A DNA stretch of 64,000 nucleotides, taken from positions 16,665 through 80,664 of the forward strand of contig CAZWUI010000002.1 of the NCBI GenBank assembly GCA_964637515.1. The letters run 5' to 3'. The DNA comes from an uncultured Bacteroidaceae bacterium (GTDB lineage: Bacteria; Bacillota; Clostridia; Christensenellales; CAG-917). The notes beneath the pieces are model-generated. The model saw only the letters and a list, made by a program, of their open reading frames with translations. It was not told where the DNA came from and did no database searches. Shown here piece by piece: positions 40,762 through 59,609 of this stretch. A program made the translations under genes and the position numbers. Position 1 is the first letter of the stretch. Each line of letters opens with the position of its first letter.

Positions 40762-41099
40762 ACTTTTTCATTTCCTCTTCCTTCTTACCTCACCCGATTT
40801 TCGTATTGTGCAGGATTTTTGGGAAGTAATAGGGGAAAGGTAAGAGCCAATAGGCAGTTGATGCTTGAGGTAATGGGTAATAGGGGAAAGGGACGAGGTG
40901 TGGATAAAAGTTGAAGTTTGTTTGTTACGTGTAGGAATAGTAATTGCAATGCGGGGTGATGAGCGGTATAATCGATGCAGAATAAAAGAGTGGAAGGAAG
41001 ATTTATGGCGGATAATACTGCAAAAAGCAAAATTAATCAATAGACACCGTAGAATGCCTTTTGGCATTTTGTGATAATTGTCAAATTTGGTTCTAAATC

Positions 41100-41128
41100 T
41101 TGACAATGAAATGCGATTGTGCTAATTT
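41100..41128 (+). promoter_or_regulatory. Candidate sigma-A-type promoter for tRNA-Leu
   Basis: TTGACA (41100-41105), 17 nt, then TGcTAATTT (extended -10, hexamer at 41123-41128), about 25 nt before the tRNA 5' end. Confidence 0.6.
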
Positions 41129-41152
41129 ATTTTGCGAACTAATCATCTAATT

Positions 41153-41239
41153 GCCGGAATGGCGGAATAGGCAGACGCAAGGGACTTAAAATCCCTCGAT
41201 AGCAATATCGTATCGGTTCGACCCCGATTTTCGGCACCA
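41153..41239 (+). tRNA. tRNA-Leu (anticodon TAA), class II with long variable arm
   Basis: Acceptor gccggaa/tttcggc (one G.U), anticodon stem aggga/tccct with loop ctTAAaa, variable arm cgatagcaatatcg, T-arm atcgg-ttcgacc-ccgat, and an encoded CCA. Confidence 0.93.
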
Positions 41240-41401: not shown

Positions 41402-41430
41402 TTGCAAAGCGCAGCGGATTATGCTAAACT
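41402..41430 (+). promoter_or_regulatory. Candidate promoter of the accessory cluster's first gene
   Basis: TTGCAA (41402-41407), 17 nt, then TGcTAAACT (hexamer at 41425-41430). The palindrome GTGTATA-N5-TATACAC (41441-41459) follows. Confidence 0.5.
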
Positions 41431-41485
41431 TACTATATACGTGTATAGCGCATATACACATACGCGCGTTGCGCAGTGGAGGATT

Positions 41486-43252
41486 ATGCTTAGAACCGCA
41501 TACGTAAAAAGAACCACCTACAAGCCGATTGACTTTTTCTTCCGCGGGGTAGCGGATGCAAAGACGAAAAAGGTTGTTTTCGTAGACGCTTTCCAAATAC
41601 TTAACGACAGGTATCTCGGAAGAATGAGCGTATGCAACTATTTCTTCATAGCGGAAAACTCCGTCCGCATCAACGAATTGAACGTTATTGCGCTTGACGA
41701 ACTGACGAATTATCATCTCGTAATGCGCGCGAATTTCTTGATTCCCGAGAAGGTGACGTATAGTTTGCCTATCACGACTCGTTTTCTTGAGAACGAGAAA
41801 GAATTTGAGATATTGCTTTCGACGATCAAGGACAACGGCTACAAGAAAGGCGACCTGATCATTTCATTCAACAGCAACACCATCATGAAGATTGACGACG
41901 AAGCGAAGAAACGTTACGATCGCTTGCGCCGACTCGGATACAAGACCTGCATTAACGGATTTGGTGAGGAGTTCAACTCACTTGACGTATTTGCGCGGTT
42001 CAATTTTGATTATTTACGTCTTGAAGCGCAGTATTTTGACAGCACTCAACCCAAGAAACGCATACTGAACATGCTTGTGAAGTATTGCGGAGCGAACAAA
42101 ATCGGGCTTATTGTTGAAGGCGTAGACACCCCGGGACAACTAAATAGGTTCAAACGCGAAGGCGTGAAACTCGTGACGGGCAAAGCGGTGTCCAAACTTT
42201 CCCGTTGGGTTACGAACGAATTTTTGGGACTTCCCGAACTGAAAGGAGAGAAAAAGGAAGCCTATCTCAAGAAACTCGACAAGGAAATCACCGCTCTTGA
42301 GAATAAGGAGCAGGCGGAATACGAAGAGATGATGCGCATTGCGCGTGAAAAGGCGAAAGCGGATGCGACGAGCGGCAAAGTCCGTCCGATAGCACCGAGA
42401 CCCGAGCTTGTCAAATCTCCCTATCAAATCAGGCTCGAACAACAAAAAGAGAGAGCACGTCGTGCTGCGCTTGCAAGGGCAGAGAAATCGGCGGAGCACA
42501 AAGAAGAAGTCCGCTTGACGAGAGAAGAGTATCGAGAGCAACGACTTATCGAAGACGCAAGACACGATATGTTCGAGGGTGACGTGCAGAGCATACTTGC
42601 ATTGGGCGCACACGCGGACGAGAAAGCGAAAACCGAAAGTGCGGACGAGAAAGAGAAGAAACCCGCAAAAGCGGAAACCAAGAAGAAAGAAACCGCAAAG
42701 AAAGAAGTTGAAGTCGCACCCGAAACGGTCGAACCCGTAGTCGAAGAAAAGGCGACTGCAAAAAAGAAATCCAAGAAGACGAAAGACGTCGTCGCGGACA
42801 CCGACAAAGAGAACAAACTTCTCGGCGAGTTCAAGGGCGGTAGTCTTGACAAACAATTAGGATTCGGCAGCGGATTCGGTGGATTCGGCATCAATCTCTC
42901 TTTCAAGGACGAGGACGAAGAAGAAATCGTCGGTCACTACAACGAGAAAGGTCAGTGGATCGATGAGGACGGATATATCTACAACGGCTACTTCGACGAA
43001 AAAGGCGAGTGGCACGACTATGAGACTTTCAACGCAAACGAAGAAGGTCACTACAACGACGACGGTCAGTGGGTGGATAAGGACGGCAAAGTCTACGACG
43101 GCTACTTTGACGAGAACGGCAGGTGGATTGACTACACCTACGTGGACGACAACGGCAACACCGTATCCAACGGCTACTACGACGAGAAGATCAAAAAGTG
43201 GGTTCCGTACGGCTACTTCGATGAAGACGGCACGTGGAAACTGTATGAATAA
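41486..43252 (+). CDS. Degenerate (probably non-catalytic) EAL-like domain protein with K/E-rich coiled region and C-terminal aromatic-Gly-Asp repeats
   Basis: The EAL-domain scaffold is recognisable: YKPI for YQPI, LRRLGYKTCINGFGEEFNSL for ..lDDFGtGySSL, and LIVEGVDTPGQL for vAEGVEt..q. The catalytic signature residues are replaced: EAL>DAF, ExxE>SFNS, DD>NG, KxD>RLE, and QG>TG. RBS GGAGG precedes ATG 41486. The C-terminus has ~15-aa repeats GY(F/N)DE.G.W.D. Confidence 0.65.
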   Translation: MLRTAYVKRTTYKPIDFFFRGVADAKTKKVVFVDAFQILNDRYLGRMSVCNYFFIAENSVRINELNVIALDELTNYHLVMRANFLIPEKVTYSLPITTRFLENEKEFEILLSTIKDNGYKKGDLIISFNSNTIMKIDDEAKKRYDRLRRLGYKTCINGFGEEFNSLDVFARFNFDYLRLEAQYFDSTQPKKRILNMLVKYCGANKIGLIVEGVDTPGQLNRFKREGVKLVTGKAVSKLSRWVTNEFLGLPELKGEKKEAYLKKLDKEITALENKEQAEYEEMMRIAREKAKADATSGKVRPIAPRPELVKSPYQIRLEQQKERARRAALARAEKSAEHKEEVRLTREEYREQRLIEDARHDMFEGDVQSILALGAHADEKAKTESADEKEKKPAKAETKKKETAKKEVEVAPETVEPVVEEKATAKKKSKKTKDVVADTDKENKLLGEFKGGSLDKQLGFGSGFGGFGINLSFKDEDEEEIVGHYNEKGQWIDEDGYIYNGYFDEKGEWHDYETFNANEEGHYNDDGQWVDKDGKVYDGYFDENGRWIDYTYVDDNGNTVSNGYYDEKIKKWVPYGYFDEDGTWKLYE

Positions 43253-43257
43253 TAGCA

Positions 43258-44481
43258 ATGGCAGACGAAGTGAACAACGAAATCAATTCCGACGTCAATG
43301 AATCCGTGGCGGACGTGGCGGAGAATACCGTGGAGAAGTCCGGCAATAAGGCGGAAAAGGCGGAGAAGCCCAAAAAAATCAAGGCTCACCGCATGACCAA
43401 GGAAGAAAAGGAAGCGGCACGTGAAGCGCAAAAGGAGAAATCCCGCCGACAAAAGGAATGGGAAGATAGCCTTGTCGCGAACAAGCGTGTCAAACGAGAA
43501 GAAACTCGGCGCAAATTCAAACGTGCGTTGATGGTTCTGCTCGTGTTTTCGCTTATCTTGACGTCGGTTGTTTACATCATGTTGCTTTTCATCGAAGAGA
43601 ACAATATCCGTATCACCGCATCGTCGAAAAACGATAAGTCGATCGAGTTGTCCTTCGATCGTGACAACTGGTCGCCCTTCCTTGACGTGAAAGGTCCTGA
43701 AGATATGTGGAACGTGAGTTACGATCCGACCTACGAGCAGGGGGACGTGCTGACCTTGTCCGCTATCGAATCCAAACTCCGCGCCTATGCGGAAAATCCC
43801 GATCAAAATGCGATCAGCGGAAACCATTCTCGTAGCAATATCATCGAGTTCTGTTTCTTCTTGCGCAATAGCGGAAGTGAAAGAGTGCAATACAATGCCG
43901 AAATGCTCTTGTCATCCAACGACGAAGGTCTTGAAGATGCTATCCGTGTCGCTTGGGGGGAAGGCTACTACGGCACCAATGCAGAACAACCCGACCGCGC
44001 TCAATACGACGTCAGATGCTATGCTGCTCCGTCGGATAGAGAAGTGTTGAGTTTCAGTCAGATTGACGGCAAAGGCAACGTCTATGAACAGGGCGGTGTC
44101 GAGAAAATCGCATACCCCGCTTGGACGAGCGGTAAGTGGGACTCTGCCGCCAAAGCGCCTTGCACCACGGAACAACTCCAACAGTATGAACAAGGTCTTG
44201 TGTTGAACACCGTCACCGGAAATTATCAGGAAGTCAGCCTTCTCGACAAAAAAGGCGAACAGATTTACGATACCGCAAACGATTACCTTCTTGCCACCGG
44301 CTATCAAAACACGATACCGTTTGTCGGCAACGATTGCGTGTTCGACAACGTTTCCTACCTGAACGCAGGCGAAACACTTTGCGTCTACGTTGCGATATGG
44401 ATCGAAGGCTCCGACTTTGATTGCGGTGACAATGCAATTGACGGCTATGTCACGCTTTCGATCAACTTCACGGTGGAATAA
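43258..44481 (+). CDS. Type-II membrane-anchored TasA/camelysin-like protein (candidate fibre anchor or accessory subunit)
   Basis: ~90-aa K/E-rich cytoplasmic N-terminus and a single TM (ALMVLLVFSLILTSVVYIMLLFI). The ectodomain opens with EENNIRITASS (compare VEDLNIAVKAA in the next gene). It ends in VYVAIWIEGSDFDCGDNAIDGYVTLSINFTVE, the same motif as the 358-aa protein. Confidence 0.6.
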   Translation: MADEVNNEINSDVNESVADVAENTVEKSGNKAEKAEKPKKIKAHRMTKEEKEAAREAQKEKSRRQKEWEDSLVANKRVKREETRRKFKRALMVLLVFSLILTSVVYIMLLFIEENNIRITASSKNDKSIELSFDRDNWSPFLDVKGPEDMWNVSYDPTYEQGDVLTLSAIESKLRAYAENPDQNAISGNHSRSNIIEFCFFLRNSGSERVQYNAEMLLSSNDEGLEDAIRVAWGEGYYGTNAEQPDRAQYDVRCYAAPSDREVLSFSQIDGKGNVYEQGGVEKIAYPAWTSGKWDSAAKAPCTTEQLQQYEQGLVLNTVTGNYQEVSLLDKKGEQIYDTANDYLLATGYQNTIPFVGNDCVFDNVSYLNAGETLCVYVAIWIEGSDFDCGDNAIDGYVTLSINFTVE

Positions 44482-44973: not shown

Positions 44974-45002
44974 TTGACAAATTTTTGCAATAATTATACA
45001 AT
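44974..45002 (+). promoter_or_regulatory. Near-consensus sigma-A-type promoter of the fibre-subunit gene
   Basis: TTGACA (44974-44979), 17 nt, then TACAAT (44997-45002). It sits at the end of a ~500-bp very AT-rich tract and leaves a ~200-nt leader. Confidence 0.65.
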
Positions 45003-45212: not shown

Positions 45213-46289
45213 ATGAAAAAGAAAGGTTTGATAGTAGCAACCATCGTGATGGTACTCGTCCTTGCAGTATCACTCTCGACCGCAACCTACGCCTGGTTCT
45301 CTAGCGAAGCTCAAGCCACTGTTGAAGATTTGAACATAGCAGTCAAAGCGGCAACCGGTGTTGAAATTGCTGTTTATGAATCCGGTGACAAGTATTTCAA
45401 CGGTGATATGACTTATTCGCAAGACACTCAAGCTTGGAATTCTGAAACAGAAGGTTTTGGCACCTTGCTCAATTTCAGCAATATCGACCTTGGTCAAATT
45501 AACAATGCTATCCTTTATGCAAGTAGCACAAATTTGAATAATGTTCCTGCCGCAGCAAAATTTGTTTATACTATAGGAACAAAAGAAGTTGGCGCAACCC
45601 TTACTACGACTGACTATATCATCAATGCAGACGGCAGCATCACTCAATGCACTGCAGATTCTCAAGCTGTTGCAGATACCACTTATGCAACGAGAGTACC
45701 ACTTACGGCAGATAGCAAATTCTACAGACCTACCGGACTTGACAATGCCGGTGATCCTTATGGATTCTACGTTGCAAAACCCAACGATAAGATTACAAAC
45801 GTCTATACCACATATTATGACATTCCTCTTGCAATGCGTGCGGTTAAGAACACTAACGGCATCGTCTGCACTCTCAAGATTAAACCCAACGGAGATATTA
45901 CAAACACATTGTATCCCGGAATGGCGGCATCCACTTATGTCAATATGTATATCACCAATGCTTCCGGCGAACAATACGCAGCGACTTTCGAAGCATATAA
46001 GTCTGCAACTTATTCATCAGGTGCAATCACCGGTGAAATTGAAACCGAAGGCGCATACTCTTTCGTCGTAGCAAAAGGTGCTCTTACTACAAGCGATATT
46101 TACAAAATTCGTTTCGAAATCTGGGTTGAAGGCACTGATCCTGAATGCAACAACACCACCACTCAAGCAACCGACTTCTACGTTGATTATTCCTTTGACG
46201 TCATCGATGAAGAAATTACCGGCACTAGCATTGATAAAGAGGGCGTAACTTATCAAGTTATTGACGGCTTGACTCAAACCAAAGCATAA
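45213..46289 (+). CDS. Secreted TasA/camelysin-like protein with SipW-cognate-type signal peptide (candidate major fibre subunit)
   Basis: RBS AAGGAGAG. The N-terminus MKKKGLIVATIVMVLVLAVSLSTATYA|WFSSEAQATV parallels B. subtilis TasA ...GGGTWA|AFNDIKSKDATF in position and pattern. The C-terminal IRFEIWVEGTDPECNNTTTQATDFYVDYSFDV fits the W..(6-8)..N..Q..alternating-hydrophobic end of the TasA/camelysin family. SipW-type peptidase genes are adjacent. Confidence 0.7.
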   Translation: MKKKGLIVATIVMVLVLAVSLSTATYAWFSSEAQATVEDLNIAVKAATGVEIAVYESGDKYFNGDMTYSQDTQAWNSETEGFGTLLNFSNIDLGQINNAILYASSTNLNNVPAAAKFVYTIGTKEVGATLTTTDYIINADGSITQCTADSQAVADTTYATRVPLTADSKFYRPTGLDNAGDPYGFYVAKPNDKITNVYTTYYDIPLAMRAVKNTNGIVCTLKIKPNGDITNTLYPGMAASTYVNMYITNASGEQYAATFEAYKSATYSSGAITGEIETEGAYSFVVAKGALTTSDIYKIRFEIWVEGTDPECNNTTTQATDFYVDYSFDVIDEEITGTSIDKEGVTYQVIDGLTQTKA

Positions 46290-46398: not shown

Positions 46399-46430
46399 CA
46401 AAAAAAAGAGCCATTGCGGCTCTTTTTTTA
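46399..46430 (-). terminator. Mirror-image terminator belonging to the decayed convergent paralogue
   Basis: Stem gagcc/ggctc flanked by A- and T-tracts. Its minus-strand flank ctagaccaaacctaaacacataaaaaaagagcc closely matches the plus-strand flank ctaaaccaaaccttacataaaaaagagagcc after the intact gene. Confidence 0.7.
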
Positions 46431-46752: not shown

Positions 46753-46781
46753 TTGACACTATTCACTATTAGTTATATAAT
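46753..46781 (+). promoter_or_regulatory. Consensus sigma-A-type promoter of sipW-like gene 1
   Basis: TTGACA (46753-46758), 17 nt, then TATAAT (46776-46781). It leaves a ~190-nt leader. Confidence 0.7.
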
Positions 46782-46974: not shown

Positions 46975-47784
46975 ATGTCCAATCTGTTTGCAAAAAGAGA
47001 GAAAAAAGAACTCTCTCCATCTCAACAAAAAGCCAAAACGATTATCGGGTGGGTGGTCAGTGCAATCTGTATCGTCATCATAATCGCCGCTTTGGCTATC
47101 TCCGTGCTCACCATCACTCGCACAACGAGCGATAACGGTGTGGCACATCTCGGGAAGCACACGTTCAATTCCGTCGTCACCGACTCAATGGAACCGACTA
47201 TTGCGAAAGGTGAACTCATCATCGCGAAGGTCTACAACGACGAAACCGATCGTGGCTCTTTGCAAGTCGGGCAAACTATCGTCTACAAAAAACTTATGTA
47301 CAATAGCGCCGCCGGCGGAAACGTCGAAGTGTTTTTCGTGCATAGAATAGATAGTCTCGGCGCTGCGTCTTGCCACGTCATAGGCGACAATCCCAACACC
47401 GCCGAACAAGATGATAACGTTTCGTACAACAATATCATCGCGACTTGGGGCTCTCCCGCAACTCTCAACGAGGACGGCACTTTCACCGTCACCAAGGATA
47501 GCAAGGGCGCATCGCTTGGCAAGCTCGGCACTTTCGTCAACTGGCTCCAAGAAGACCGCACCAATTATTTCTGCGTGATAGTTTTGCCGCTCATTTTGCT
47601 CTTCGTCATCTACGGTTTCGTGCTTATCCGCGCTCTCGTCATCGCAAAACTCTCAAAGGATAACGAGAAGAAGTCCGTCAGCGTCGAAGACCTGTCCGAA
47701 GACGAGAAAAAACGCCTTGCCGCAGAGTTGCTCGCATCTCTCACCGAAAAGAAAGAAACCGAACAAATCGACTCCGATTCGTAA
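46975..47784 (+). CDS. SipW-type (ER/archaeal-type, S26B) signal peptidase I, long form with C-terminal TM and acidic tail
   Basis: N-terminal TM. Ser box VVTDSMEPTI, His box FFVHRID, and GDN box VIGDNPNTAEQD, compared with B. subtilis SipW SGSMEP / THRIV / KGDNN..D. A second TM (YFCVIVLPLILLFVIYGFVLI) and the tail VEDLSEDEKKRLAAELLAS follow. Confidence 0.85.
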   Translation: MSNLFAKREKKELSPSQQKAKTIIGWVVSAICIVIIIAALAISVLTITRTTSDNGVAHLGKHTFNSVVTDSMEPTIAKGELIIAKVYNDETDRGSLQVGQTIVYKKLMYNSAAGGNVEVFFVHRIDSLGAASCHVIGDNPNTAEQDDNVSYNNIIATWGSPATLNEDGTFTVTKDSKGASLGKLGTFVNWLQEDRTNYFCVIVLPLILLFVIYGFVLIRALVIAKLSKDNEKKSVSVEDLSEDEKKRLAAELLASLTEKKETEQIDSDS

Positions 47785-47959: not shown

Positions 47960-49480
47960 ATGAATATTAGTCTTGTTTTCAAATTTTTGAGAGCGTTCCT
48001 CGGAGCGTTCTACGTTAATGGCATCGGCTCTATCTTTTGGGGTTTCTTGCATATCTTCTACAACGACGGTTACTCGGAGGCTTTCAAAAACTACACCGAC
48101 CAGTTCGGCGCAGGCGAGTGGGCTGTCTCCATTATCTTTATCATACTCATCATCGCCGCTATCGTCGCTATTGTCGGCCTTATCGTTTTCGGCATAATCA
48201 AGCTCGTGCGTATCAATAAAAACGTCGTCCTCCCTCAAGACCTCGTCGAAGAATGCGCCAACCTCAAAAAACAAATCATCAAAATGTCCGCCGAAAAGGA
48301 TAGAATCCTCGGTATGAAGGTCAGCGACGTCGGCAACTACGACGGCGAAGAGCCCGAAGAAGGCAAAGAGCCCAGCGCTGAAGAAGCCGTCAAAGCAGGG
48401 GAGTCGCGTTTCTACAAACTCACCGAAATCGACCAAATCTACGAAAATTACGTTCCCCCTGTATACGACGACGAGATCACTCTTCCCGAACTTTGCGACC
48501 GTTTCAGAAATTTCGCATGCTCGCGTATGCGCCTTTTCTATAATCCGCGTATCATCCGCTTGTTCATCGCAGGTATGTCAACTTCGCGTTTGATGATCTT
48601 GCAAGGTATTTCCGGTACAGGTAAAACTTCACTCCCGCACGCTATGGGTATCTTCCTCAATAACCCCGCAACTATCGCTTCCGTTCAGCCGTCTTGGCGT
48701 GACCGTACCGAACTTTTCGGCTACTTCAACGAATTTACAAAACGATTCAACGAAACCGAAGTCTTGAAAAAAATGTACGAGGCGACTTGGAATAAGAATA
48801 TCTACCTCACCGTCCTCGACGAAATGAACATCGCGCGTGTCGAGTACTACTTCGCAGAAATGCTCTCCATTCTCGAAATGCCGTCCCGTGACGAGTGGAT
48901 CGTTGACCTTGTTCCGTCAGGTTGGCCTAATGACCCGAAACATATCGATAAAGGCCGTTTCAAACTCCCCGAAAATATGTGGTTCATCGGCACCGCAAAC
49001 AACGACGACTCCACCTTCGCTATCTCGGATAAGGTTTACGACCGTGCTATGCCTATCAACATCAACTCCAAAGGCGTCGCTTTCGACGCTCCTTATGCGG
49101 AGTCGATCTATATCAGTTACGAGCACCTTGAAAGTATGTTCAAGGACGCTATGGTCGAACATAAGGTGTCTCAAGAAAACCTTGACAAAATCGACCAACT
49201 TGACGACTACGTCATCAAACACTTCAGACTCGCATTTGGTAACCGTATCGTCAAACAGCTCAAAGAATTTGTTCCCGCTTACGTCGCTTGCGGTGGTACC
49301 GAACTAGACGGTCTCGATTACGTTCTTTGTAACAAGATTTTGCGTAAGTTCGAATCCCTCAACTTGTCCTACATCCGCGACGAAATCGACGGTCTAATCC
49401 TTTATCTGTCTGATCAGTTCGGGGAAGACTCGATGGAAGAGTGCAAGGAGTATTTGCAACGCTTGAAGAAACTCTTTTAA
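47960..49480 (+). CDS. Membrane-anchored McrB-like AAA+ (AAA_5 family) NTPase
   Basis: Two N-terminal hydrophobic helices (res ~8-32 and ~55-80) and a coiled coil. Walker A LQGISGTGKTS, Walker B with McrB-family continuation LTVLDEMNIARVEYYFAEMLSILE, and WFIGTANNDDSTFAISDKVYDRAM (an NxxD like McrB NTAD). No obvious RBS. Confidence 0.75.
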   Translation: MNISLVFKFLRAFLGAFYVNGIGSIFWGFLHIFYNDGYSEAFKNYTDQFGAGEWAVSIIFIILIIAAIVAIVGLIVFGIIKLVRINKNVVLPQDLVEECANLKKQIIKMSAEKDRILGMKVSDVGNYDGEEPEEGKEPSAEEAVKAGESRFYKLTEIDQIYENYVPPVYDDEITLPELCDRFRNFACSRMRLFYNPRIIRLFIAGMSTSRLMILQGISGTGKTSLPHAMGIFLNNPATIASVQPSWRDRTELFGYFNEFTKRFNETEVLKKMYEATWNKNIYLTVLDEMNIARVEYYFAEMLSILEMPSRDEWIVDLVPSGWPNDPKHIDKGRFKLPENMWFIGTANNDDSTFAISDKVYDRAMPININSKGVAFDAPYAESIYISYEHLESMFKDAMVEHKVSQENLDKIDQLDDYVIKHFRLAFGNRIVKQLKEFVPAYVACGGTELDGLDYVLCNKILRKFESLNLSYIRDEIDGLILYLSDQFGEDSMEECKEYLQRLKKLF

Positions 49481-49643
49481 ACGACGCTATTTGGCGCCTT
49501 GCGTTGTCGGCTTTACGGGTGCTCGCACTCACGTACTACGTGTACGTTTCACGCTTGCCTTCCGCACCTTCCCGGCAATGCATCCAAATATCGCCGTTTG
49601 GGGTGGACTGAACAGTGTGTGCGTGACGTCATAGCAGTTCTCT

Positions 49644-52559
49644 TTGCGGCTGTTTGAGTTCGATAAGAGTTTCGTACGCTTGGCGACAAAACCTATAAGC
49701 ATTAACGTATATCGCTTTGCGATAATGAGAGATATGTCCGATAATAAATTGACCAAAGACGTTTATCTGCAGTATGCTAAAAAAATCGTTTCCGTTCTCT
49801 ACGGCGACGACTTCTTTAACCAATACAAAAAAAGAGTCGACGACGGTTTCGCAGATTTCAAACTCGTCAAAAAACGCCTAATTCAAGATATTTCCGTCGA
49901 TTGGATCGATACAATCGAGGACGTCTTGCCCAATCTCGATGCTATCGTCCGTAACCCACGTAGGTTCATCGTGCAGGAAGAAGATATCGTCGATATTTCG
50001 CTCGCAAAGGCTATCTCTACCGAGTCCGTCAAACACCTTGCGCAACATACCAATATGATCTCCAAGGTCGACGAGGACGGCACCGTTACCCCTAACAGAA
50101 TACTTAATATCACAAAGGAAGAATCCTTTGAAATATACGAAAACCGCTTTATATTCACCTTGCTTTTGAAGCTCAAAGACTTCGTGCAGATGCGCTACGA
50201 CAAAATCAAAAAGGCATCCGCAACTCAAGATGTCTTGCAGCTCAACGTGGATAGCAAGTTCAATTTGCCGTCAAAGAAGGTCACCTATCGAACGGAATAT
50301 ATGGCGCAACTCAGTTTCGACGAGGTCATGAGAATGGACCCCGAAACCCTCGAAAAAATCGAAAGAGTTGCCAAAATCGACAGAATTATCACCGACTTTT
50401 TGAGTTCGTCTTTCGCAAAGTCGATGAGAAATTCCGCTCCCGTCCGTCCGCCTATCACGCGTACTAACGTCATCTTGAAAGAACCTAACTTCAAGAAAGC
50501 GTTGACTCTTTGGCAGTTCATCGAAACATATCAGGCGACCGGCGGTTTCTCCACGTCGGACGATATCGAGGACTACAAAATCGAGGATAATTCGCAACAG
50601 CAACTTCGTCAAATGGTCACTCTCAATACCATGCTTTTCGAGAGTCTATACGACCAGCACGAAACGGATATGGACCTCGACGACGCTCAATTCACCGACC
50701 TTTTGAGAGTGGGCGACCTCGACTTCGGCAAGGACGAAATCCAACACGACGAATACTCTCAAAAACTCGACGAAGAAGATAAGACGGAAGATAGCGATAA
50801 GCAGGAAGAAGTTTCTCAAACGGAGTCCGAAGAACAAAAGGAACAAGAACAAGAAACTCCGCCCGAAGAAGTCGAAGTCGAAAAAGAAGTCATCGAAGAA
50901 CAAGAAATCGAAGTGGATAAGGACAAAGAAGTCGAAACACCTCCCAAGGACGAGCCCGACGACGAAGAGCCCGATGCCGATAAATTCGATCAAAACCTGT
51001 TCGATATACGAAAACTCTATAAACGCCCCGAAGATGACAAACTCCGTCAGGAAGAAGTGTCCAAAATCAAGGACGCTATCGATCGTTGTCTTGTCGCATA
51101 CCGCAAAATCAAACAGGAAGAACTCGACGAAAGAGACCGCGAAGAGAATGCGAAACGCAGAAAAGCAGAACTCGAAAAACGTGCGGAAGCTTTCCGTTCT
51201 AAAAAAGCGGAATTCGGCGATCAGGACGGACAAATCTATCTCGGTACGGACGCTTTCGGCAAGTCCGTCGTGCAGGATAAGAAAGAAGAATTCAAGAAAG
51301 CACATAAAGAACTGTTCTCAAATCGTAACGAACGCCTCGATCTCGGCGATAAGGACCTTGAAAATATCCGCAAGAGTATTGAAGCTATGGAACAGGAACG
51401 CGCAAAAGACGAAGAACGTCGCAATAAAATCGCGTTCGCAGGAGACGGAGAAGAGAGAGAAGTTGATGAAACCGATATTCCCGTCGTCGATCTCGACGCT
51501 CAACTCAAAGCGAAAGAAGAACTCGAACGCAGAAATTCCGTTCGCTTTGACGGTGAGAGAAATCTACTTGCAGGCGGCATAGGTGCGGACACTTCATTCG
51601 TCGATAAACGCAAGAAGAAAACAGAAGAAATCAAACCGCGTACGACTACGCTCAAACCGACTTCAAGCAAGGTCAAACGTCAACGCGTCATAGAGCCCGT
51701 GGACGAAAATAAGGTCAAAGTCGGAGATGCTCCCGTCCAATTCGACGACGGATTCGGCAATACGTTCGGTGAACAAAAAGCAAATCTCGGCGACTTGTCC
51801 ACCGTGCAAAAACCCGCTCGCAAGAAAAAGAAATTGGAAGAAGTCGTACCCGAAAACGCAGACGTCAAGACCGAAACCGCGGTCGAAACCGCTCCCGAAA
51901 CGGTCAAACCCAGAACCAGAAAGGCAGAGCCTAGAGATCCGTGGGCATTGTCGCCGACCACACTCAATCAACGCTACGACGTCGCAAGCGGTAAAGTGCG
52001 CAACTTCGAGGCGGTTGACGAAAACAAGGTCAAAGTCGGAAAAGCCCCCGTAAAGAATGCGAACGCAGGGGACCTTCTCGACGATACGTTTGAAGACCAA
52101 AGAGCAAATCTCGGCAACTTCGACAAGAAACCTGTGGTGAAAGTCGAAGAAAAGACGGAAGAGCCTAAACCCGTCAAGAAGAGAACGAGAAAGCCTAAAA
52201 CTGAAAAAGCACCCGAAGTGAAATCCGAAGATACGGCGGAAACCGCAGGTGCCGATACCGCACAGGAAAGCAAGGTCGAAACTCCTGTCGCAGAAGAGAA
52301 GAAAGAAGAAAAGAAACCAAAAATCAGAAAGGCAGAGCCTAGAGATCCGTGGGCGTTGTCCCCGACCACTCTCAATCAGCGTTACGACGTTGCAAGCGGT
52401 AAAGTGCGCAACTTCGAGGCGGTTGACGAAAACAAGGTCAAAGTCGGAAAAGCCCCCGTAAAGAATGCGAACGCAGGGGATCTTCTCGACGATACGTTTG
52501 AAGATCAAAAGGCAAATTTGGGTATAAAAAAGAAGAAAAACGAGGATGATAAGGATTGA
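49644..52559 (+). CDS. Large acidic protein with McrC/DUF2357-like N-terminal domain, no recognisable nuclease, and a C-terminal repeated module
   Basis: It lies immediately downstream of the McrB-like gene. Residues ~90-190 fit the McrC N-domain/DUF2357 pattern (...RRFIVQEEDIVDISLAK...ITKEESFEIYENRFIFTLLLKL...). I see no D..(D/E)xK motif. Residues ~340-700 are E/D/K-rich. A 66-aa module occurs twice, plus one degenerate copy. The true start is uncertain (ATG 49644, 49725 or 49734). Confidence 0.6.
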   Translation: MRLFEFDKSFVRLATKPISINVYRFAIMRDMSDNKLTKDVYLQYAKKIVSVLYGDDFFNQYKKRVDDGFADFKLVKKRLIQDISVDWIDTIEDVLPNLDAIVRNPRRFIVQEEDIVDISLAKAISTESVKHLAQHTNMISKVDEDGTVTPNRILNITKEESFEIYENRFIFTLLLKLKDFVQMRYDKIKKASATQDVLQLNVDSKFNLPSKKVTYRTEYMAQLSFDEVMRMDPETLEKIERVAKIDRIITDFLSSSFAKSMRNSAPVRPPITRTNVILKEPNFKKALTLWQFIETYQATGGFSTSDDIEDYKIEDNSQQQLRQMVTLNTMLFESLYDQHETDMDLDDAQFTDLLRVGDLDFGKDEIQHDEYSQKLDEEDKTEDSDKQEEVSQTESEEQKEQEQETPPEEVEVEKEVIEEQEIEVDKDKEVETPPKDEPDDEEPDADKFDQNLFDIRKLYKRPEDDKLRQEEVSKIKDAIDRCLVAYRKIKQEELDERDREENAKRRKAELEKRAEAFRSKKAEFGDQDGQIYLGTDAFGKSVVQDKKEEFKKAHKELFSNRNERLDLGDKDLENIRKSIEAMEQERAKDEERRNKIAFAGDGEEREVDETDIPVVDLDAQLKAKEELERRNSVRFDGERNLLAGGIGADTSFVDKRKKKTEEIKPRTTTLKPTSSKVKRQRVIEPVDENKVKVGDAPVQFDDGFGNTFGEQKANLGDLSTVQKPARKKKKLEEVVPENADVKTETAVETAPETVKPRTRKAEPRDPWALSPTTLNQRYDVASGKVRNFEAVDENKVKVGKAPVKNANAGDLLDDTFEDQRANLGNFDKKPVVKVEEKTEEPKPVKKRTRKPKTEKAPEVKSEDTAETAGADTAQESKVETPVAEEKKEEKKPKIRKAEPRDPWALSPTTLNQRYDVASGKVRNFEAVDENKVKVGKAPVKNANAGDLLDDTFEDQKANLGIKKKKNEDDKD
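51917..52523 (+). repeat. Intragenic direct duplication: two 199-bp copies with 408-bp period
   Basis: 51917-52115 and 52325-52523 are near-identical, with a central ~100-bp stretch that matches exactly. Both encode RKAEPRDPWALSPTTLNQRYDVASGKVRNFEAVDENKVKVGKAPVKNANAGDLLDDTFEDQ(R/K)ANLG. Confidence 0.92.
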
Positions 52560-53362
52560 TGTCCCCGGAAACTAAAACTAAAATCAAAAAAATATATAAT
52601 ATTTTTTCCACGGTTATATTCGCCGTGGTTTTCCTTTTCTTCGTGCTGGTCATAATATTTTCTATGGTGCAGAAAAACCAAGGAAAAGACGTCAAGATTT
52701 TCGGGCATTATATGTACACAATTCTCACGGATAGTATGGTGCCCACTCTAAATCCGTCAGACGTCATTTGGTGCAAGGCGATAGAAGAAGGGGATATTGT
52801 CGAAGGCGCGATTATAACCTTTGTTGTGCCCGAAGGACACGGCGGTTTGTCGGGTAGAAACGACACTCATAGAATTGTGGAAATCGAGCGTGACGAAAAC
52901 GGCATTATCACGGGTATTTACACTCAAGGGGACAACAGCACCGTCAGGGATAATTGGAAATTGACAGTGGACGACGTGAAGGCGGTTATGTCAAAAAAAC
53001 TCGTGGTCGTCAGTGCGCTCATCAAATTCATAAGCGAATATAGATTCTTGGCATATATGGTGTTAATCGTCCTACCTCTCGGCTCGATAGCGGTCATGTT
53101 TGGAATATCCTACGTCAGGGAGAAAGTCAAGGAAAAGAAAGCGGAAACCGCAGGCGGAGAAGTCGCACTTGACGATTTGTCCGACGAGGACAAGAAAAAG
53201 ATGCTTGAAGAATTTTTGGCGCAGTCAACGGCAGAAAAATCTGAGAGTGAAGAAAACGATCAATTTGGCGAAGGAAACTCACTGCAAACGACAGAAGATG
53301 CGATTAGAATGCCTGAAAACGACGAAAACACTCCCGAATGCAACGAAAACAGTGACGATTGA
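52559..53362 (+). CDS. Second SipW-type signal peptidase I, long form with C-terminal TM and acidic tail
   Basis: Ser box ILTDSMVPTL, His box DTHRIVE, GDN box TQGDNSTVRD, a second TM (FLAYMVLIVLPLGSIAVMFGI), and the tail LDDLSDEDKKKMLEEFLAQ. ATG 52559 overlaps the TGA of the preceding gene (TGATG). The ORF-track start 52556 is a TTG. Confidence 0.85.
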   Translation: MSPETKTKIKKIYNIFSTVIFAVVFLFFVLVIIFSMVQKNQGKDVKIFGHYMYTILTDSMVPTLNPSDVIWCKAIEEGDIVEGAIITFVVPEGHGGLSGRNDTHRIVEIERDENGIITGIYTQGDNSTVRDNWKLTVDDVKAVMSKKLVVVSALIKFISEYRFLAYMVLIVLPLGSIAVMFGISYVREKVKEKKAETAGGEVALDDLSDEDKKKMLEEFLAQSTAEKSESEENDQFGEGNSLQTTEDAIRMPENDENTPECNENSDD

Positions 53363-53430
53363 CAATTTGAAAACGGTCGTTTCGTGGAAAGAATAAAACA
53401 AAAAAAATTGAGAAAATAATCACAGATTTG

Positions 53431-53457
53431 CGCACTCTAACGGGTGCGTTTTTCTTT
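53431..53457 (+). terminator. rho-independent terminator closing the accessory cluster
   Basis: Stem cgcac/gtgcg (extendable) followed by TTTTTCTTT. Confidence 0.65.
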
Positions 53458-53555
53458 GCGGTCGCAAGCGGGGTATTTTGTTCGTTATCGCTCTTGCGTT
53501 TTCGCCAATACTATGCTAAAATAAGATACTAATATAATATATAATGGAGTTTGCT

Positions 53556-55085
53556 ATGCTGGCGAAAGTCAAAAGTTACGCTCTCGACGGGCTTATCGGC
53601 TATGAAGTCGACGTCGAACTCGATATAAACAGCGGTCTTCCGTCTTACGAACTCGTAGGACTTGCCTCCACTGCGACGAAAGAGTCGAAAGAAAGGGTGC
53701 GTTCCGCGGTCAAAAATAGCGGTTTCACTTACCCTATGAAGAGAGTCACCATAAATCTTGCGCCCGCAGACGTGAAGAAAGAAGGTCCGTCCTTCGATTT
53801 GCCCATTGCGATTGCAATGCTACAAGCAAGCGAGCAAATTCAATCCAAGAAGTATAAGGATTTCGTTTTCGTCGGTGAACTCGGACTCGACGGCAGACTC
53901 CGCTCGGTCAATGGCATAATGCCCATACTCCTTTCTGCATTGCAAGCGGGGTGCAAAAACTTCGTCATTCCGTCCGCTAACGCCAAAGAGGCAAGTTATA
54001 TTGAAGGGATAACCGTTTACGCTATGGACGGATTGAAACAGGTGGTGGATTTCTTGAACGGCGGAGAATATTCTCCCGTCGAAACATCCGATTTCGTGTC
54101 CGTATGCACGGTGCACGGCTACGGTGTGGATATGAGCGACGTGAAAGGGCAGGCGGTAGCAAAACGCGCCCTTGAAATCGCAGTGAGCGGTGGACACAAT
54201 CTTCTCATGCTCGGACCTCCCGGAGCGGGCAAGACTATGCTTGCAAAATGCGTGCCTACCATTATGCCGGATATGTCCTTTGAAGAAGCGGTCGAAGTCA
54301 CAAAGATACATTCTGTTTCGGGGATTTTGGACCCGTCCGTCGGCATAGTCACCACAAGACCTTTCAGGACTCCGCACCACACCACTACGGTGCCTACTCT
54401 CGTCGGTGGCGGAGCGAAAGCGACTCCCGGTGAAGTCAGTCTTGCGCATAACGGCGTTTTGTTCCTTGACGAAATGCCCGAATATAGCCGCAGAGCGTTG
54501 GAAACTCTCCGTCAACCCCTTGAAGATAGGCGGGTTACGGTGGCAAGAGTGGCAAGAAGCGTGGAATATCCCTCGAACTTTATGCTCATTGCGAGTATGA
54601 ATCCCTGTCCTTGCGGAAACTACGGCAGTAGAACGCAGGTTTGTAGGTGTACGCCCGCTCAAATTCATACCTACGTGTCGAAACTATCCGGTCCGTTGCT
54701 CGACAGAATAGACTTGCAAGTCGAAGTGGACAACGTCGTCTACGAAGAATTGAGAGGACGAGATAAGGCGGAATCGTCGGCGGAGGTCAAGGCCCGTATC
54801 AACCGCGCAAGAGAGTTGCAAGCAAAGAGATTTGCAGAGGACGGTATCTCCACAAACGCCGAAATGGAAAGCAAACAAATAGAGAAATATTGCAGTCTTG
54901 ACAGCGACGGCGAAAGGCTGTTGCAAAAGGCATTCGACAGACTCAATCTATCCGCACGAGGTACGACGAGAATACTCAAAGTCGCAAGGACGATAGCCGA
55001 CCTCGACGGTAGCGAAAACGTACTTGGCAAGCATATTGCCGAAGCGATACAATATCGCAGTCTTGATAGGAAATACACCATATGA
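53556..55085 (+). CDS. comM: YifB/ComM-family Mg-chelatase-like AAA+ ATPase
   Basis: N-terminal Lon-protease-like domain, Walker A GPPGAGKTMLA, Walker B LFLDEMPE, and CxC...C motif NPCPCGNYGS..C.C. The start was placed at ATG 53556 after GGAG. Confidence 0.92.
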   Translation: MLAKVKSYALDGLIGYEVDVELDINSGLPSYELVGLASTATKESKERVRSAVKNSGFTYPMKRVTINLAPADVKKEGPSFDLPIAIAMLQASEQIQSKKYKDFVFVGELGLDGRLRSVNGIMPILLSALQAGCKNFVIPSANAKEASYIEGITVYAMDGLKQVVDFLNGGEYSPVETSDFVSVCTVHGYGVDMSDVKGQAVAKRALEIAVSGGHNLLMLGPPGAGKTMLAKCVPTIMPDMSFEEAVEVTKIHSVSGILDPSVGIVTTRPFRTPHHTTTVPTLVGGGAKATPGEVSLAHNGVLFLDEMPEYSRRALETLRQPLEDRRVTVARVARSVEYPSNFMLIASMNPCPCGNYGSRTQVCRCTPAQIHTYVSKLSGPLLDRIDLQVEVDNVVYEELRGRDKAESSAEVKARINRARELQAKRFAEDGISTNAEMESKQIEKYCSLDSDGERLLQKAFDRLNLSARGTTRILKVARTIADLDGSENVLGKHIAEAIQYRSLDRKYTI

Positions 55086-56164
55086 ACGGACGGTCTTCCG
55101 CACATAAAGCACTGGTTGCCTTGCAATCGATCGAAGAACTTTCTTTGAAAAAGAAAAGAGAGTTGCTCGTTGCATTGCCAAACCCTGACGAGTGGACTTG
55201 CAAGGATAATTCGGATATACTTTTGTCCGCTCTCGGCGACAGGTATAAGACGGAATTTTTAAGCAAAATTTCATCGGTGGACGAGATAATGGATAAGATG
55301 AGTCTTGCAGGGGTGAATTGGGTGTCTATGATTGACGACGAATATCCCGACGCACTCCGTGAGATTTATGACGTACCGCCGGTGCTGTTTTGCAAAGGCA
55401 ACGTATCCTTGCTCAACTCGAAGTGTATAGGCGTCGTCGGCACTCGCACTCCCACTCGCTACGGACAAAAGGTTTGCGACTCTTTCAGTAGAGAATTTGC
55501 AAGGTCGGGACTGACGATAGTTTCGGGTTTTGCAAGGGGAGTCGACTCAATCGCACACAAGGCGGCGGTCGAATCGGACGCACCGACAATCGCGGTGTTT
55601 GCTTGCGGACTCGACACCTGCTATCCGTCCGAGCATAGAGGACTATACGACGCAATAATAGGGCATAATGGTCTTATCGTCAGCGAGTATCCCCTTGGCG
55701 TGAAACCCTTGCAATATCACTTCCCCGAAAGGAATAGAATTATCAGCGGACTGTCCGAAGGCGTATTTCTTCCCGAAGCGACTTTGAAAAGCGGATCGCT
55801 CATAACCGCAAGGCTTGCGATAGAGCAGGGCAAAGAGTTGTTCGTAGTCCCCGGAAATATCAATTCCCCCGAGAGCGAAGGCACGAACAAACTGTTGCAA
55901 GAAATGCCGCACTCTCTCGTGCTCGAAGCGGAAGACGTATTTTCCAGGCTCGGAGTCAAGCAGGTGAAAAGAGAAACCGAAGTCGTAGAGTTGAATATGG
56001 CGGAAACTATGATAGTGGACGCTCTGCACGACAAGGAGTTGCACTTTGAAGAATTGCTTGAAATAAGCGGGCTTGCCGCGGGCGAACTTAATACCATACT
56101 CATGAGTCTCGAACTCAACGGAATAATCGAAGAAACGGGCGGAAATCACTACGCACTTGCGTAA
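55082..56164 (+). CDS. dprA: DNA-processing protein DprA
   Basis: GVVGTRTPTRYG, SGFARGVDSIAHKAA, GSLITA, and a C-terminal winged helix. Confidence 0.92.
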   Translation: MNGRSSAHKALVALQSIEELSLKKKRELLVALPNPDEWTCKDNSDILLSALGDRYKTEFLSKISSVDEIMDKMSLAGVNWVSMIDDEYPDALREIYDVPPVLFCKGNVSLLNSKCIGVVGTRTPTRYGQKVCDSFSREFARSGLTIVSGFARGVDSIAHKAAVESDAPTIAVFACGLDTCYPSEHRGLYDAIIGHNGLIVSEYPLGVKPLQYHFPERNRIISGLSEGVFLPEATLKSGSLITARLAIEQGKELFVVPGNINSPESEGTNKLLQEMPHSLVLEAEDVFSRLGVKQVKRETEVVELNMAETMIVDALHDKELHFEELLEISGLAAGELNTILMSLELNGIIEETGGNHYALA

Positions 56165-56193
56165 TTATCCGCCGTCCATATAAAGGAGCAATA

Positions 56194-58302: not shown

Positions 58303-59607
58303 ATGCAAAAGACCGTCGTTAACGTAATCGGTGGCGGTCTTGCGGGCGCGGAAGCAGCGTTCAGACTTCTTGACGAGGGATTTGCCGTCAGAATGTACGA
58401 AATGCGTCCAAAACGCTCTACGGGCGCGCACACGGGCGATAGAATCGCGGAACTCGTTTGCTCGAACAGTTTGAAGTCTATCTCACCTGAAACCGCAAGC
58501 GGACTTTTGAAAGACGAACTTGCGTTGCTAAACTGCCGTCTTCTCGAAATAGCCAAAAGATGTGCGGTGCCTTCGGGGAGTGCACTTGCTGTGGATAGAG
58601 AGAAGTTTTCGACTGAAGTCGAAAAGGAGTTGTTCGAATATCCCGATTTCACTCTTGTGCGAGAAGAGATAACCGAGATTTCGGACGAGCCTACGATTAT
58701 AGCGACAGGACCGCTGACGTCCCCTGATTTTGCGGATCATATCGCAGGACTGACGGGGGAAAGCAGATTGTTCTTCTACGACGCAATCGCACCTATCGTG
58801 TCGTTTGACAGCGTGGATATGACCAAAGCATACTTCGGCGGACGATACGGCAAGGGCGGGGAAGACTATCTCAATCTTCCCATGCAAAAGGACGAGTACG
58901 AGATTTTCTACGGTGCGCTCGTCACGGCGCAAACCGCAACTCTGCACGACTTCGACAAGCGTGAATTGTTCGACGGTTGTATGCCCATCGAACTCATGGC
59001 GAAAAGGGGTAGCGATACTATGCGCTACGGACCGTTGCGCCCCGTGGGACTTCGCAATCCCGAAACGGGGGAAAGCGCATATGCGGTCGTGCAACTACGA
59101 AAGGAAAATTCCGCGGGAGATTGCTATAACCTCGTGGGATTTCAAACCAATCTCACCTATGGTGAGCAGAAGAGAGTGTTCAGTCTGATACCCGCACTGC
59201 ACTCGGCGGAATTTCTCCGCTACGGCACTATGCACAGGAATACATACGTCAAAGCCCCCGACGTTTTGACGGATAGATTCAGACTGAAAAACTCACCTAC
59301 ACCCGTTTATATTGCGGGACAGTTGTCGGGAGTGGAAGGATATGTCGAGAGTATCGCAAGCGGTCTTATCGCTGCGGACGCTCTCGCAAGAGAACTTCGG
59401 AATGAACAACCGCTCGTATTGCCTGCAACCACGATTTGCGGTGCACTTACGAGATATATATCGTCGTGCCCCGGCGATTTTCAACCTATGAACGCAAACT
59501 TCGGTCTGCTGCCCGAACTCAAAAACGTTCACAAAAAGGAAAGAAAACTCGCCTACCACGACAGAGCAATCGCGGATTTAACTTCCGCACTTCATATCGA
59601 GAGGTAA
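58303..59607 (+). CDS. trmFO: Methylenetetrahydrofolate--tRNA-(uracil-5-)-methyltransferase TrmFO
   Basis: FAD-binding motif [19 protein letters not shown], and [12 protein letters not shown]. Located after topA. Confidence 0.95.
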
Positions 59608-59609
59608 AT

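Follow-up and report, generated by a model that had tools for sequence, protein, structure and literature searches.

Can a gene pair assembled from the parts of the McrBC restriction enzyme, with a membrane anchor where the DNA-reading domain would be and no recognizable nuclease, still work in restriction, or has it been recruited for a different task? This question is posed by two adjacent genes in a 64,000-nucleotide stretch of DNA (the window; positions 16,665 to 80,664 of contig CAZWUI010000002.1 in the GenBank assembly GCA_964637515.1), which is deposited under the name of an uncultured Bacteroidaceae bacterium and placed by GTDB in the Christensenellales. The first gene codes for a McrB-like AAA+ GTPase and the second for a large protein with a DUF2357 domain; genes for SipW-type signal peptidases lie on both sides of the pair. 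Judging from the predicted domains, the pair belongs to CoCoPALM, a class that was named in 2024 and is functionally uncharacterized. We consider it fairly probable that the two proteins form a complex of GTPase and adaptor docked at the membrane, which would gate or power fiber assembly by the SipW route, and do not act in restriction.

The GTPase

An earlier annotation of this DNA, made from the sequence alone (the original prediction), described a membrane-anchored McrB-like protein and an acidic McrC-like partner. Both open reading frames (ORFs) lie at the coordinates given there, and all the quoted motifs are real. The GTPase has the following features (amino acids, aa):

47960..49480, + strand: McrB-like AAA+ GTPase of the NxD branch (the "McrB" of CoCoPALM), 506 aa, ATG start
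residues 1-34: hydrophobic N-terminal segment
residues 55-82 (48122-48205): transmembrane (TM) helix
residues ~91-121: short predicted helical stalk, followed by an acidic linker
residues ~185-506: GTPase core
residues 216-224 (48605-48631): Walker A motif GISGTGKTS
residues 285-290 (48812-48829): Walker B motif VLDEMN
N347 and D349 (48998-49006): NxD signature, FIGTANNDDSTF

By sequence comparison, the similarity of this protein to McrB is well above chance. In a phmmer search, it matched the McrB chains in the PDB with an E value of 7e-7 over residues 193-399, a region that covers Walker A, Walker B, and the signature; the match to the NCBIfam McrB model (E value of 6.5e-7) scored far under the equivalog cut-off. 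A profile of 28 sequences of the GTPase family, compared with Escherichia coli McrB by hhalign, gave a probability of 96.9% and an E value of 1.8e-10. These results bear out the McrB-family assignment that had been based on the GISGTGKTS and VLDEMN motifs. Across 28 relatives with identities as low as 33%, no variation is seen in the Walker A motif, the Walker B Asp residue (D287), N347, D349, or several Arg residues, and E288 is almost as constant.

The signature had to be reinterpreted. The original prediction read it as NxxD, and the NNDD of the window protein does align pairwise with the NTAD of E. coli McrB, yet conservation in the family fixes Asp at the third position. Among 150 representatives (50% identity), the motif is GTAN-x-D-[D/E, rarely G/Q]-ST. 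The signature is therefore NxD, and the NxxD reading arose because the fourth residue is by chance an Asp in the window protein. The 506-aa protein is thus a McrB-type GTPase that is intact and belongs to the NxD branch.

The N-terminal region contains one unambiguous TM helix, residues 55-82, with Kyte-Doolittle values of up to 3.6 and Lys/Arg residues following it toward the C terminus. The segment of residues 1-34 is aromatic and less strongly hydrophobic (values of 1.1-1.4), so that of the two hydrophobic helices originally proposed, only one is certain and the other, as predicted from sequence, is not secure. Because the basic residues come after the TM helix, the GTPase domain is expected to be cytoplasmic. 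A domain-family search of residues 1-185 found neither a DNA-binding domain nor any other domain family, in agreement with the earlier view that a DNA-reading domain is missing; the predicted membrane anchor and short stalk stand in place of the DNA-binding domain of McrB.

The DUF2357 partner

The second gene of the pair and its features are as follows (nucleotides, nt):

49644..52559, + strand: nuclease-less McrC-like partner, 971 aa as counted from a TTG codon
residues ~31-340: conserved N-terminal domain, including the DUF2357 match
residues 91-192 (49914-50219): DUF2357, Pfam E value of 1.2e-8 and score of 34.9 bits (cut-off, 23.3)
50442-50531: second invariant block, VRPPITRTN..WQFIETY
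51066-51092: conserved helix IKDAIDRCL, preceded by an acidic linker and followed by a low-complexity tail
51906-52114 and 52314-52522: direct repeat in the tail, 209 nt, 93% identical (68 aa, 65/68 identical)

The real translation start is probably the ATG codon at 49734 (M31, giving a protein of 941 aa), because M31 is nearly invariant among 59 homologues, residues 1-36 have pLDDT values (predicted local distance difference test) of <50, and the ORF of a 98%-identical relative is 941 aa long. The YENRF-containing segment that had been taken for a McrC-type N-domain signature, EESFEIYENRFIF (residues 159-171), falls within the DUF2357 match, which is above the Pfam threshold. The original prediction also failed to find a nuclease core, and Pfam searches detected no nuclease family either in the window partner or in 58 homologues. 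Among the 59 partners scanned, DUF2357 was recognized in 34 and Peptidase_S26 in 3, along with various coiled-coil families (e.g., Rod_CreS in 8/59). A cryptic inactivated nuclease fold is possible in residues 193-340, where the structural model (see below) is only moderate.

The giant acidic tail is also real, with 25.5% Asp and Glu and 20% Lys and Arg in residues 341-971 (631 aa), a net charge of -36 for the whole protein, and, in addition to the two copies of the 68-aa repeat, a degenerate third one. However, such a tail is lineage specific: in other lineages, it is replaced by a K/E coiled coil or is absent. Partner lengths range from 367 to 1245 aa among the homologues, and the shortest proteins (367-394 aa) lack any tail. 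The tail of the window partner produced no match to the coiled-coil families of Pfam and is mainly acidic and of low complexity. The only conserved helix past the variable linker is the one that reads IKDAIDRCL in the window and INKAIDRVL in the relatives. Tandem Repeats Finder reported nothing between 47000 and 53500; a direct-repeat search picked up the repeats of the partner, which are dispersed at a distance of 408 nt.

The SipW peptidases and their link to the pair

The signal peptidase genes, like the subunit-like genes described below, form a context that is absent from the original prediction:

46975..47784, + strand: SipW1, archaeal/ER-type (SipW-like) signal peptidase I; TIGR02228 E value of 3e-9, NF046067 E value of 2e-8; N-terminal TM helix, catalytic Ser in DSMEP (residues 70-74), His in VHRI (122-125), second TM helix (200-218), cytoplasmic tail
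47716-47736: SipW1 tail motif LAAELLA
52556..53362, + strand: SipW2, second SipW-like signal peptidase; TIGR02228 E value of 3.4e-13 (49.7 bits against a cut-off of 51.85), NF046067 E value of 7e-12
53201-53221: motif MLEEFLA in the cytoplasmic tail of SipW2

The ATG codon of SipW2 (52559) overlaps the TGA stop codon of the partner gene (TGATG). In an alignment of the SipW-like proteins, the columns of the catalytic Ser (S, M, and P of SMxP) and His are invariant. All scores, to TIGR02228 as well as to NF046067 (the SipW of Bacillus), are just or well below the curated cut-offs, and by these matches SipW1 and SipW2 are members of the SipW superfamily but not of the equivalog.

One connection between the pair and these peptidases comes from three Ruminococcus-type genomes, in which the partner and SipW are fused in frame into proteins of 984-998 aa (L048:7353-10307, L054:9828-12824, and L069:11763-14741). 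The fused SipW, joined to the C terminus of the partner, is complete, with a TM helix, a catalytic domain with the SMEP motif, and a second TM helix, and it occupies the position that in sister genomes with two genes belongs to the separate downstream SipW, the SipW2 orthologue. The topology of the fusions is consistent, as a cytoplasmic partner tail would continue into the cytoplasmic N terminus of SipW. By Rosetta-stone logic, these proteins link the McrC-like partner to SipW.

A further connection is offered by the cytoplasmic tails of the upstream SipW proteins. Of the 43 such tails that are 25 aa or longer, 42 contain a short helix resembling A[IV]EEYLA, while shuffled sequences led one to expect 0.4; the pattern was chosen after the data had been viewed. 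The helix follows the second TM helix and is present in two or three tandem copies in some lineages. This motif is absent in all 7 loci with a tailless partner (two of which are truncated upstream) and present in 55 of the 62 others, a correlation between loci that are not phylogenetically independent.

Distribution and conserved gene neighborhoods

The GTPase family is large, with more than 8000 close relatives in the databases and 762 representatives at an E value of <1e-30 (50% clustering). A scan of one genome per species yielded at least 594 stretches with GTPase relatives. These relatives come from Christensenellales, Oscillospirales (Ruminococcus, Acutalibacteraceae), Lachnospiraceae, and some Bacilli; the cultured carriers among the scan matches include Ruminococcus sp. 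FC2018 (L064) and Eubacterium ruminantium FB3002 (L074).

The gene order [EAL] P P SipW-GTPase-partner [P...] SipW, where P stands for a subunit-like gene, recurs in species-level genomes of all these groups. The counts that follow refer to 82 loci, of which 80 came from the species scan and the other two are L001 and L004, annotated with hidden Markov models built in this work; adjacency of the partner was scored only in loci with at least 3 kb of downstream sequence. The DUF2357 partner adjoins the GTPase in 68/68 loci, with a median gap of 48 nt. Upstream of the GTPase, SipW is encoded in 56 of 61 loci, subunit-like proteins in 58 of 61, and an EAL protein in at least 30 of 61, the last figure coming from an insensitive single-sequence search. 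In an independent metagenome sample that was seeded on the subunit gene, SipW was present in 10 of 19 long loci, and all 10 also contained the GTPase; SipW without the GTPase was never seen in that sample, and the remaining 9 loci were dispersed subunit genes that lacked both.

In four Christensenellales-type genomes with the same downstream comM-dprA-topA synteny as the window, the GTPase is 85-89% identical to its window counterpart, compared to 73-74% for ComM, 63-64% for TopA, and 53-56% for DprA. In GC content, the cluster does not differ from the remainder of the window. Three tRNA genes lie directly upstream of the cluster (40451-41236; Rfam), and a housekeeping block with comM/yifB-like, dprA, topA, trmFO, hslV, and hslU genes lies downstream (53544-60143). 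The cluster thus sits in the core chromosome and not in an island, and its conservation pattern is that of a vertically inherited core function and not of a mobile defense island.

The nearest relative of the window locus, L005 (CAZRHE010000003.1), has the same synteny and a 98%-identical GTPase and is likewise labeled "uncultured Bacteroidaceae bacterium." This label is probably a binning or taxonomy error, since all other relatives belong to Clostridia or Christensenellales. The gap between the GTPase gene and the likely ATG codon of the partner (49481-49733) is 254 nt in the window, versus the median of 48 nt in the relatives, and appears to be longer still in L005. This 254-nt gap showed no significant RNA structure (z = 0.26) and no Rfam family.

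Family members come in three architectures: ~450-530 aa with one or two TM helices, which is the type seen in the window; ~550-700 aa with four or five TM helices; and 700-870 aa without TM helices. The membrane-bound class with four or five N-terminal TM helices includes P0400, P0402, P0408-P0413, and others. In a few relatives (P0368, P0372), a signal peptide is followed by an ectodomain of ~230 aa, a P/T linker, a single TM helix, and then the GTPase. This layout independently supports the cytoplasmic location of the GTPase domain and suggests coupling across the membrane. No fusions of the GTPase with SipW or with the partner were found among the 150 representatives. One homologue, P0076 (L004:10001-11941, 646 aa), contains an exact internal duplication of ~140 aa (EWVVDIIPNSW...FVPAYVGTG twice), which is probably an assembly artifact and not a real variant.

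Subunit-like genes and a possible regulatory gene of the cluster

Besides the pair, the cluster in the window codes for one EAL protein, two SipW peptidases, and two subunit-like proteins that belong to no known family. The genes and sites that have not been listed above are as follows:

41402..43252, + strand: EAL-domain protein, 616 aa from a TTG codon, true start uncertain; Pfam EAL E value of 3e-24, EAGR_box E value of 1.2e-6
43258..44481, + strand: p407, membrane-anchored paralogue of the subunit family, with which it aligns
44398-44424: C-terminal motif WIEGSDFDC of p407
44974-45002: promoter-like site before p358
45213..46289, + strand: p358, candidate major fiber subunit, with a SipW-type signal peptide ..TATYA/WF (predicted cleavage at the slash) and the C-terminal motif WVEGTDPEC
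46401-46429: terminator-like site after p358
46753..46781, + strand: promoter-like site upstream of SipW1, a perfect 12/12 match to TTGACA-17-TATAAT
53430..53449, + strand: terminator-like hairpin after SipW2, putative operon end

The promoter- and terminator-like sites are consensus matches only. As they bracket the region from SipW1 through SipW2, they suggest a four-gene unit, SipW1-GTPase-partner-SipW2. By the same kind of match, p358 appears to have its own promoter and terminator, and the consensus scan found a terminator-like hairpin after p407 as well.

The hydrophobic region of p358 ends in S-T-A-T-Y-A-W-F-S-S, and its paralogues have similar patterns. The signal peptide of TasA ends in T-W-A/A-F-N-D, which resembles the p358 pattern. 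The alternative of a type IV (class III) signal peptide was rejected, because the conserved residues (A-T-Y-A-W-F) close the hydrophobic region at its C-terminal end and are not preceded by a conserved Gly. The AlphaFold2 model of p358 is all-beta and confident (pLDDT of 86.6; predicted TM-score, pTM, of 0.83), and its weak Foldseek matches are to jelly-roll-like proteins (SUN, CBM32, and the Eph ligand-binding domain, with FimG at rank 34). TasA was not among the 50 listed matches. Assignment of the subunits to TasA/camelysin (Peptidase_M73) or to a known class of pilins was therefore rejected after Pfam and PDB-profile searches without a match and a Foldseek search without one at its E-value cut-off of 0.001.

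The subunit family is large and paralogous, with a near-invariant signal peptide ending in ATYAWF, the invariance of which may be inflated by the word-index search, and the C-terminal pattern W-x-E-G-x-D-x-x-C. Sequence identities of p358 to its homologues drop from 96, 81, and 75% to 48% or less; such fast evolution is expected for an exposed structural protein. Other loci contain additional paralogous subunits and very large adhesin-like members with the same signal peptide, such as a 1489-aa protein with Flg_new repeats in L004 and a 2023-aa leucine-rich-repeat protein adjoining the L001 cluster. The p407 protein combines a cytoplasmic K/E-rich N-terminal tail, an uncleaved TM helix (residues 94-112), and an external beta domain that ends in WIEGSDFDC; L001, L004, and the majority of the other loci have an equivalent gene in this position. 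The protein is a putative fiber base or anchor. The fiber role is thus deduced from the set of paralogues, from their anchor/major subunit/adhesin pattern, and from the presence of SipW.

The best NCBIfam match of the EAL protein is the cyclic di-GMP (c-di-GMP) receptor LapD (E value of 8e-10). By eye, its catalytic motifs look degenerate and read DAF instead of EAL, NGFG instead of DDFG, and RLE instead of KID. The C-terminal half is K/E-rich and ends in YFDE-G-W repeats that match the EAGR box, a motif of the gliding proteins of Mycoplasma. This protein may serve as a c-di-GMP receptor or regulator for the cluster.

Proposed mechanism and alternative explanations

In the solved McrBC structures, the hexameric McrB ring is activated by McrC, the N-terminal domain of which is inserted into the ring. 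By analogy, the GTPase would assemble into a hexameric ring of the McrB type, which its TM stalks would keep beneath the membrane, and the N-terminal domain of the partner would plug into this ring and stimulate GTP hydrolysis, as McrC does for McrB. The tail of the partner, including the conserved IKDAIDRxL helix, could tether the ring to SipW, with the A[IV]EEYLA-type helix on the cytoplasmic tail of SipW as a likely contact. Cycles of GTP binding and hydrolysis would then gate or power SipW-dependent cleavage and ordered polymerization of the subunits on the outer face of the membrane, and the degenerate EAL protein might bring fiber assembly under the control of c-di-GMP. The pair would thus be a device for fiber or pilus biogenesis made from the parts of a restriction enzyme. 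The original prediction, which favored a membrane motor-plus-adaptor over a restriction enzyme, is supported: the partner has no detectable nuclease, the GTPase has a clear TM helix, and the YENRF region aligns with DUF2357. In its broadest form, the proposal would make CoCoPALM pairs the energizing or gating part of an undescribed surface-fiber machine of gut and rumen Clostridia (Christensenellales, Oscillospirales, Lachnospiraceae), tethered to SipW and controlling a new family of beta-sandwich subunits and adhesins; this wider claim is advanced tentatively, as an idea that falls somewhat short of probable.

Several observations weigh against the proposed mechanism. The partner showed no similarity to E. 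coli McrC in the hhalign comparison (probability of 0.1%), and a search of PDB sequences with the partner family profile returned coiled-coil and acidic-region noise only and no solved McrC. The AlphaFold2 model of the partner N-terminal domain, built from a 29-sequence alignment, is moderate (pLDDT of 63; pTM of 0.48), and a Foldseek search of the PDB with this model found no McrC fold, the best matches being kinesins with an E value of 0.09 and a TM-score of ~0.1. With a weak model and no meaningful match, structural confirmation of the McrC-like domain failed, and the label "McrC-like" therefore rests on the Pfam DUF2357 match and on the equation of DUF2357 with the N-terminal domain of McrC by Bell et al. 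(PMC11090510). For the subunits, the Foldseek search of the PDB with the p358 model gave no match at an E value of ≤0.001 (the best being 1.6e-3), and TM-scores were ≤0.31 in the 50 listed matches; p358 matched no NCBIfam family, and Pfam had no match for the subunits (even at an E value of ≤10 for eight paralogues); and the subunit profile matched no PDB sequence. That the subunits form a fiber and are cleaved by SipW is inferred from the signal-peptide pattern and operon logic, and hexamer formation, insertion of the partner, contact of its tail with SipW, and an effect on secretion are likewise postulated steps. The tail-motif statistics lose weight through the choice of the pattern from the data and the shared ancestry of the loci. 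The CoCoPALM class is known from one paragraph of one paper and from no experimental study, and the PADLOC model nearest to the GTPase, by its GTPase domain only, is a candidate defense component. Finally, to our knowledge, TasA-type fibers need no NTPase for their assembly, so that an energy requirement is not obvious.

This last point would suit a regulatory switch or scaffold, in which the membrane GTPase and its partner act as a nucleotide-dependent timer of SipW activity or fiber output and perform no mechanical work, for example by relaying the c-di-GMP status from the EAL protein. In the window, as in at least 30 of 61 relatives, the cluster is headed by an EAL-domain gene, its degenerate motifs and LapD-like match fit a receptor role, and the many charged or coiled-coil cytoplasmic tails (those of the partner and SipW, the N-terminal tail of p407, and the C-terminal half of the EAL protein) suggest a scaffold network. 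However, the EAL gene was missed in about half of the loci, albeit by an insensitive search, and the full hydrolyzing set of McrB-type catalytic residues is invariant or nearly so in a GTPase that is more conserved than TopA, which is compatible with a switch but does not demand one. The present evidence does not separate a gate from a motor; a switch without mechanical work is, in our view, unlikely, although it ranks ahead of the other alternatives.

Descent from type IV restriction systems could also be taken to mean that the locus is an anti-phage system derived from McrBC or CoCoNuT, with the nuclease swapped for a membrane-acting or protease effector, which resides in, or guards, a locus for phage-receptor fibers. 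The partner tail is hypervariable, as is often the case in conflict systems, and the NxD branch includes the CoCoNuTs, predicted to be defensive by Bell et al. (PMC11090510). The PADLOC match to PDC-M26A is strong (E value of 1e-36) but limited to the shared GTPase core (profile positions 314-436 of 724), the same segment is matched by relatives of all three GTPase architectures, and the partner has no PADLOC match, so that the identification of the pair as the candidate system PDC-M26 was rejected. Moreover, none of the 59 partners contains a nuclease or another toxic effector domain; the GTPase exceeds the adjacent housekeeping genes in conservation and has a fixed chromosomal position; its synteny with SipW, extending to fusion of the partner, is tight across orders; and the ORF list shows no obvious mobile-element or defense-island gene among the immediate neighbors, most of the upstream 40 kb being unannotated. 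A defense function therefore seems quite improbable. Less probable still is an envelope or division factor unrelated to the fiber genes, in which the GTPase would be brought to the divisome, or to some other envelope machine, by an FtsB/FtsL-like TM and coiled-coil anchor. This option draws on the N-terminal domain homologous to FtsB that was reported by Bell et al., on weak FtsL (Pfam) matches of GTPase homologues (E values of 0.0077 and 0.057), and on the core-gene level of GTPase conservation. Against it, the FtsL/FtsB similarity is sub-threshold and generic, and the window GTPase has no match to FtsL or FtsB in Pfam; there are no division genes nearby; and the invariant neighbors are SipW, with which fusions exist, and the subunit-like genes.

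Implications

If the pair does gate or power fiber assembly, the motor of a restriction enzyme has been domesticated into a conserved envelope machine of abundant gut and rumen anaerobes, so that an immune motor has been exapted into a core machine. Such a machine would represent a new class of pilus assembly and a new route to surface fibers in Gram-positive bacteria, where we know of no SipW/TasA-like fibers that need an NTPase, and its subunits would constitute a new family of fiber proteins and adhesins relevant to the colonization of the host and of fiber particles. Genes of this kind are currently labeled "AAA family ATPase," "DUF2357 domain-containing protein," or "hypothetical." Naming these loci CoCoPALM would help to avoid counting them as restriction or defense systems, because defense finders can flag the shared GTPase domain. 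The partner-SipW fusions and the SipW tail motif provide concrete interaction hypotheses for the whole class.

Comparison with known systems

The closest known counterpart of the window pair is CoCoPALM itself. As described by Bell, Koonin et al. (eLife 2024, PMC11090510), this is a large clade of the NxD branch that is defined by a fusion of the GTPase with a TM and coiled-coil domain resembling FtsB and is associated with signal peptidases; the class is covered in one paragraph that offers no mechanism, with its analysis deferred to a later paper. The same source gives the signature as "NxD," usually with Glu or a second Asp in the next position, equates DUF2357 with the N-terminal domain of McrC, and regards the N-terminal domain of the GTPase as homologous to FtsB. 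Its available supplementary files contain no mention of CoCoPALM, and its available text contains no mention of fusions between partner and SipW, of the motif in the SipW tails, of the subunit family, or of the above-housekeeping conservation. A literature search found no follow-up on CoCoPALM, no paper on PDC-M26, and none that links McrB to SipW or TasA; one apparent match was an E. coli strain genotype.

The window pair shares with this class the NxD-branch GTPase (as seen in the 28 relatives and 150 representatives), the adjacent nuclease-less DUF2357 partner, and the signal peptidase genes. For the FtsB-like N terminus, the window protein offers a clear TM helix, the sub-threshold similarity to FtsL being confined to homologues. 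As for charged or coiled-coil extensions, the tail of the window partner is charged, and matches to coiled-coil families are confined to partner homologues. The differences are that the tail of the window partner is acidic, of low complexity, and rich in repeats and not a clean coiled coil, and that two SipW genes flank the pair. None of these differences is essential.

Compared to EcoKMcrBC, the window encodes a homologous AAA+ GTPase core with the Walker A and B motifs and the sensor Asn, in a two-gene unit, the second gene of which in EcoKMcrBC codes for the GTPase-activating partner. In contrast to that system, the window GTPase has a TM anchor and no N-terminal domain for binding modified DNA, its signature is NxD instead of NTAD, the partner has no detectable PD-(D/E)xK nuclease or similarity to E. 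coli McrC, and the context is a secretion/fiber operon and not a restriction locus. The CoCoNuT systems (CnuB/CnuC) belong to the same NxD branch and have noncanonical McrC homologues that often lack an active nuclease. The nearest TM-less relatives of the window GTPase (700-870 aa), with 40-45% identity to its GTPase domain, might, to judge from their length, be CoCoNuT CnuB proteins. However, CoCoNuTs are cytoplasmic, with long coiled coils, HEPN and other nucleases (PD-(D/E)xK, PLD), and RNA-binding domains, whereas the window system has a TM anchor, a linkage to SipW, and no nuclease found in the partner.

On the side of the fibers, a parallel is offered by the tapA-sipW-tasA operon for the biofilm fibers of Bacillus subtilis, in which SipW is encoded together with its substrates, an anchor/accessory protein and a major subunit. 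Here too, SipW-type peptidases with a C-terminal TM helix and tail are accompanied by putative substrates, an anchor and a major subunit, with signal peptides ending in T-aromatic-A/x-F. Unlike that operon, the window cluster encodes subunits without a sequence match to TasA or camelysin, places a GTPase-adaptor pair between its two SipW genes, and has a conserved motif in the SipW tails. The type IV pilus and Tad systems are similar by analogy only: they also combine a signal peptidase of their own, a hexameric NTPase on the cytoplasmic side of the membrane (in our case, the ring is predicted), and several paralogous major and minor subunits with a conserved N-terminal hydrophobic segment. 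No component is homologous. The NTPase of the window cluster is a McrB-type AAA+ protein and not a member of the PilB/VirB11 family, and cleavage is predicted where the signal peptide ends on the external side, as expected for type I signal peptidases, and not at the cytoplasmic end, as in the type IV pilus and Tad systems.

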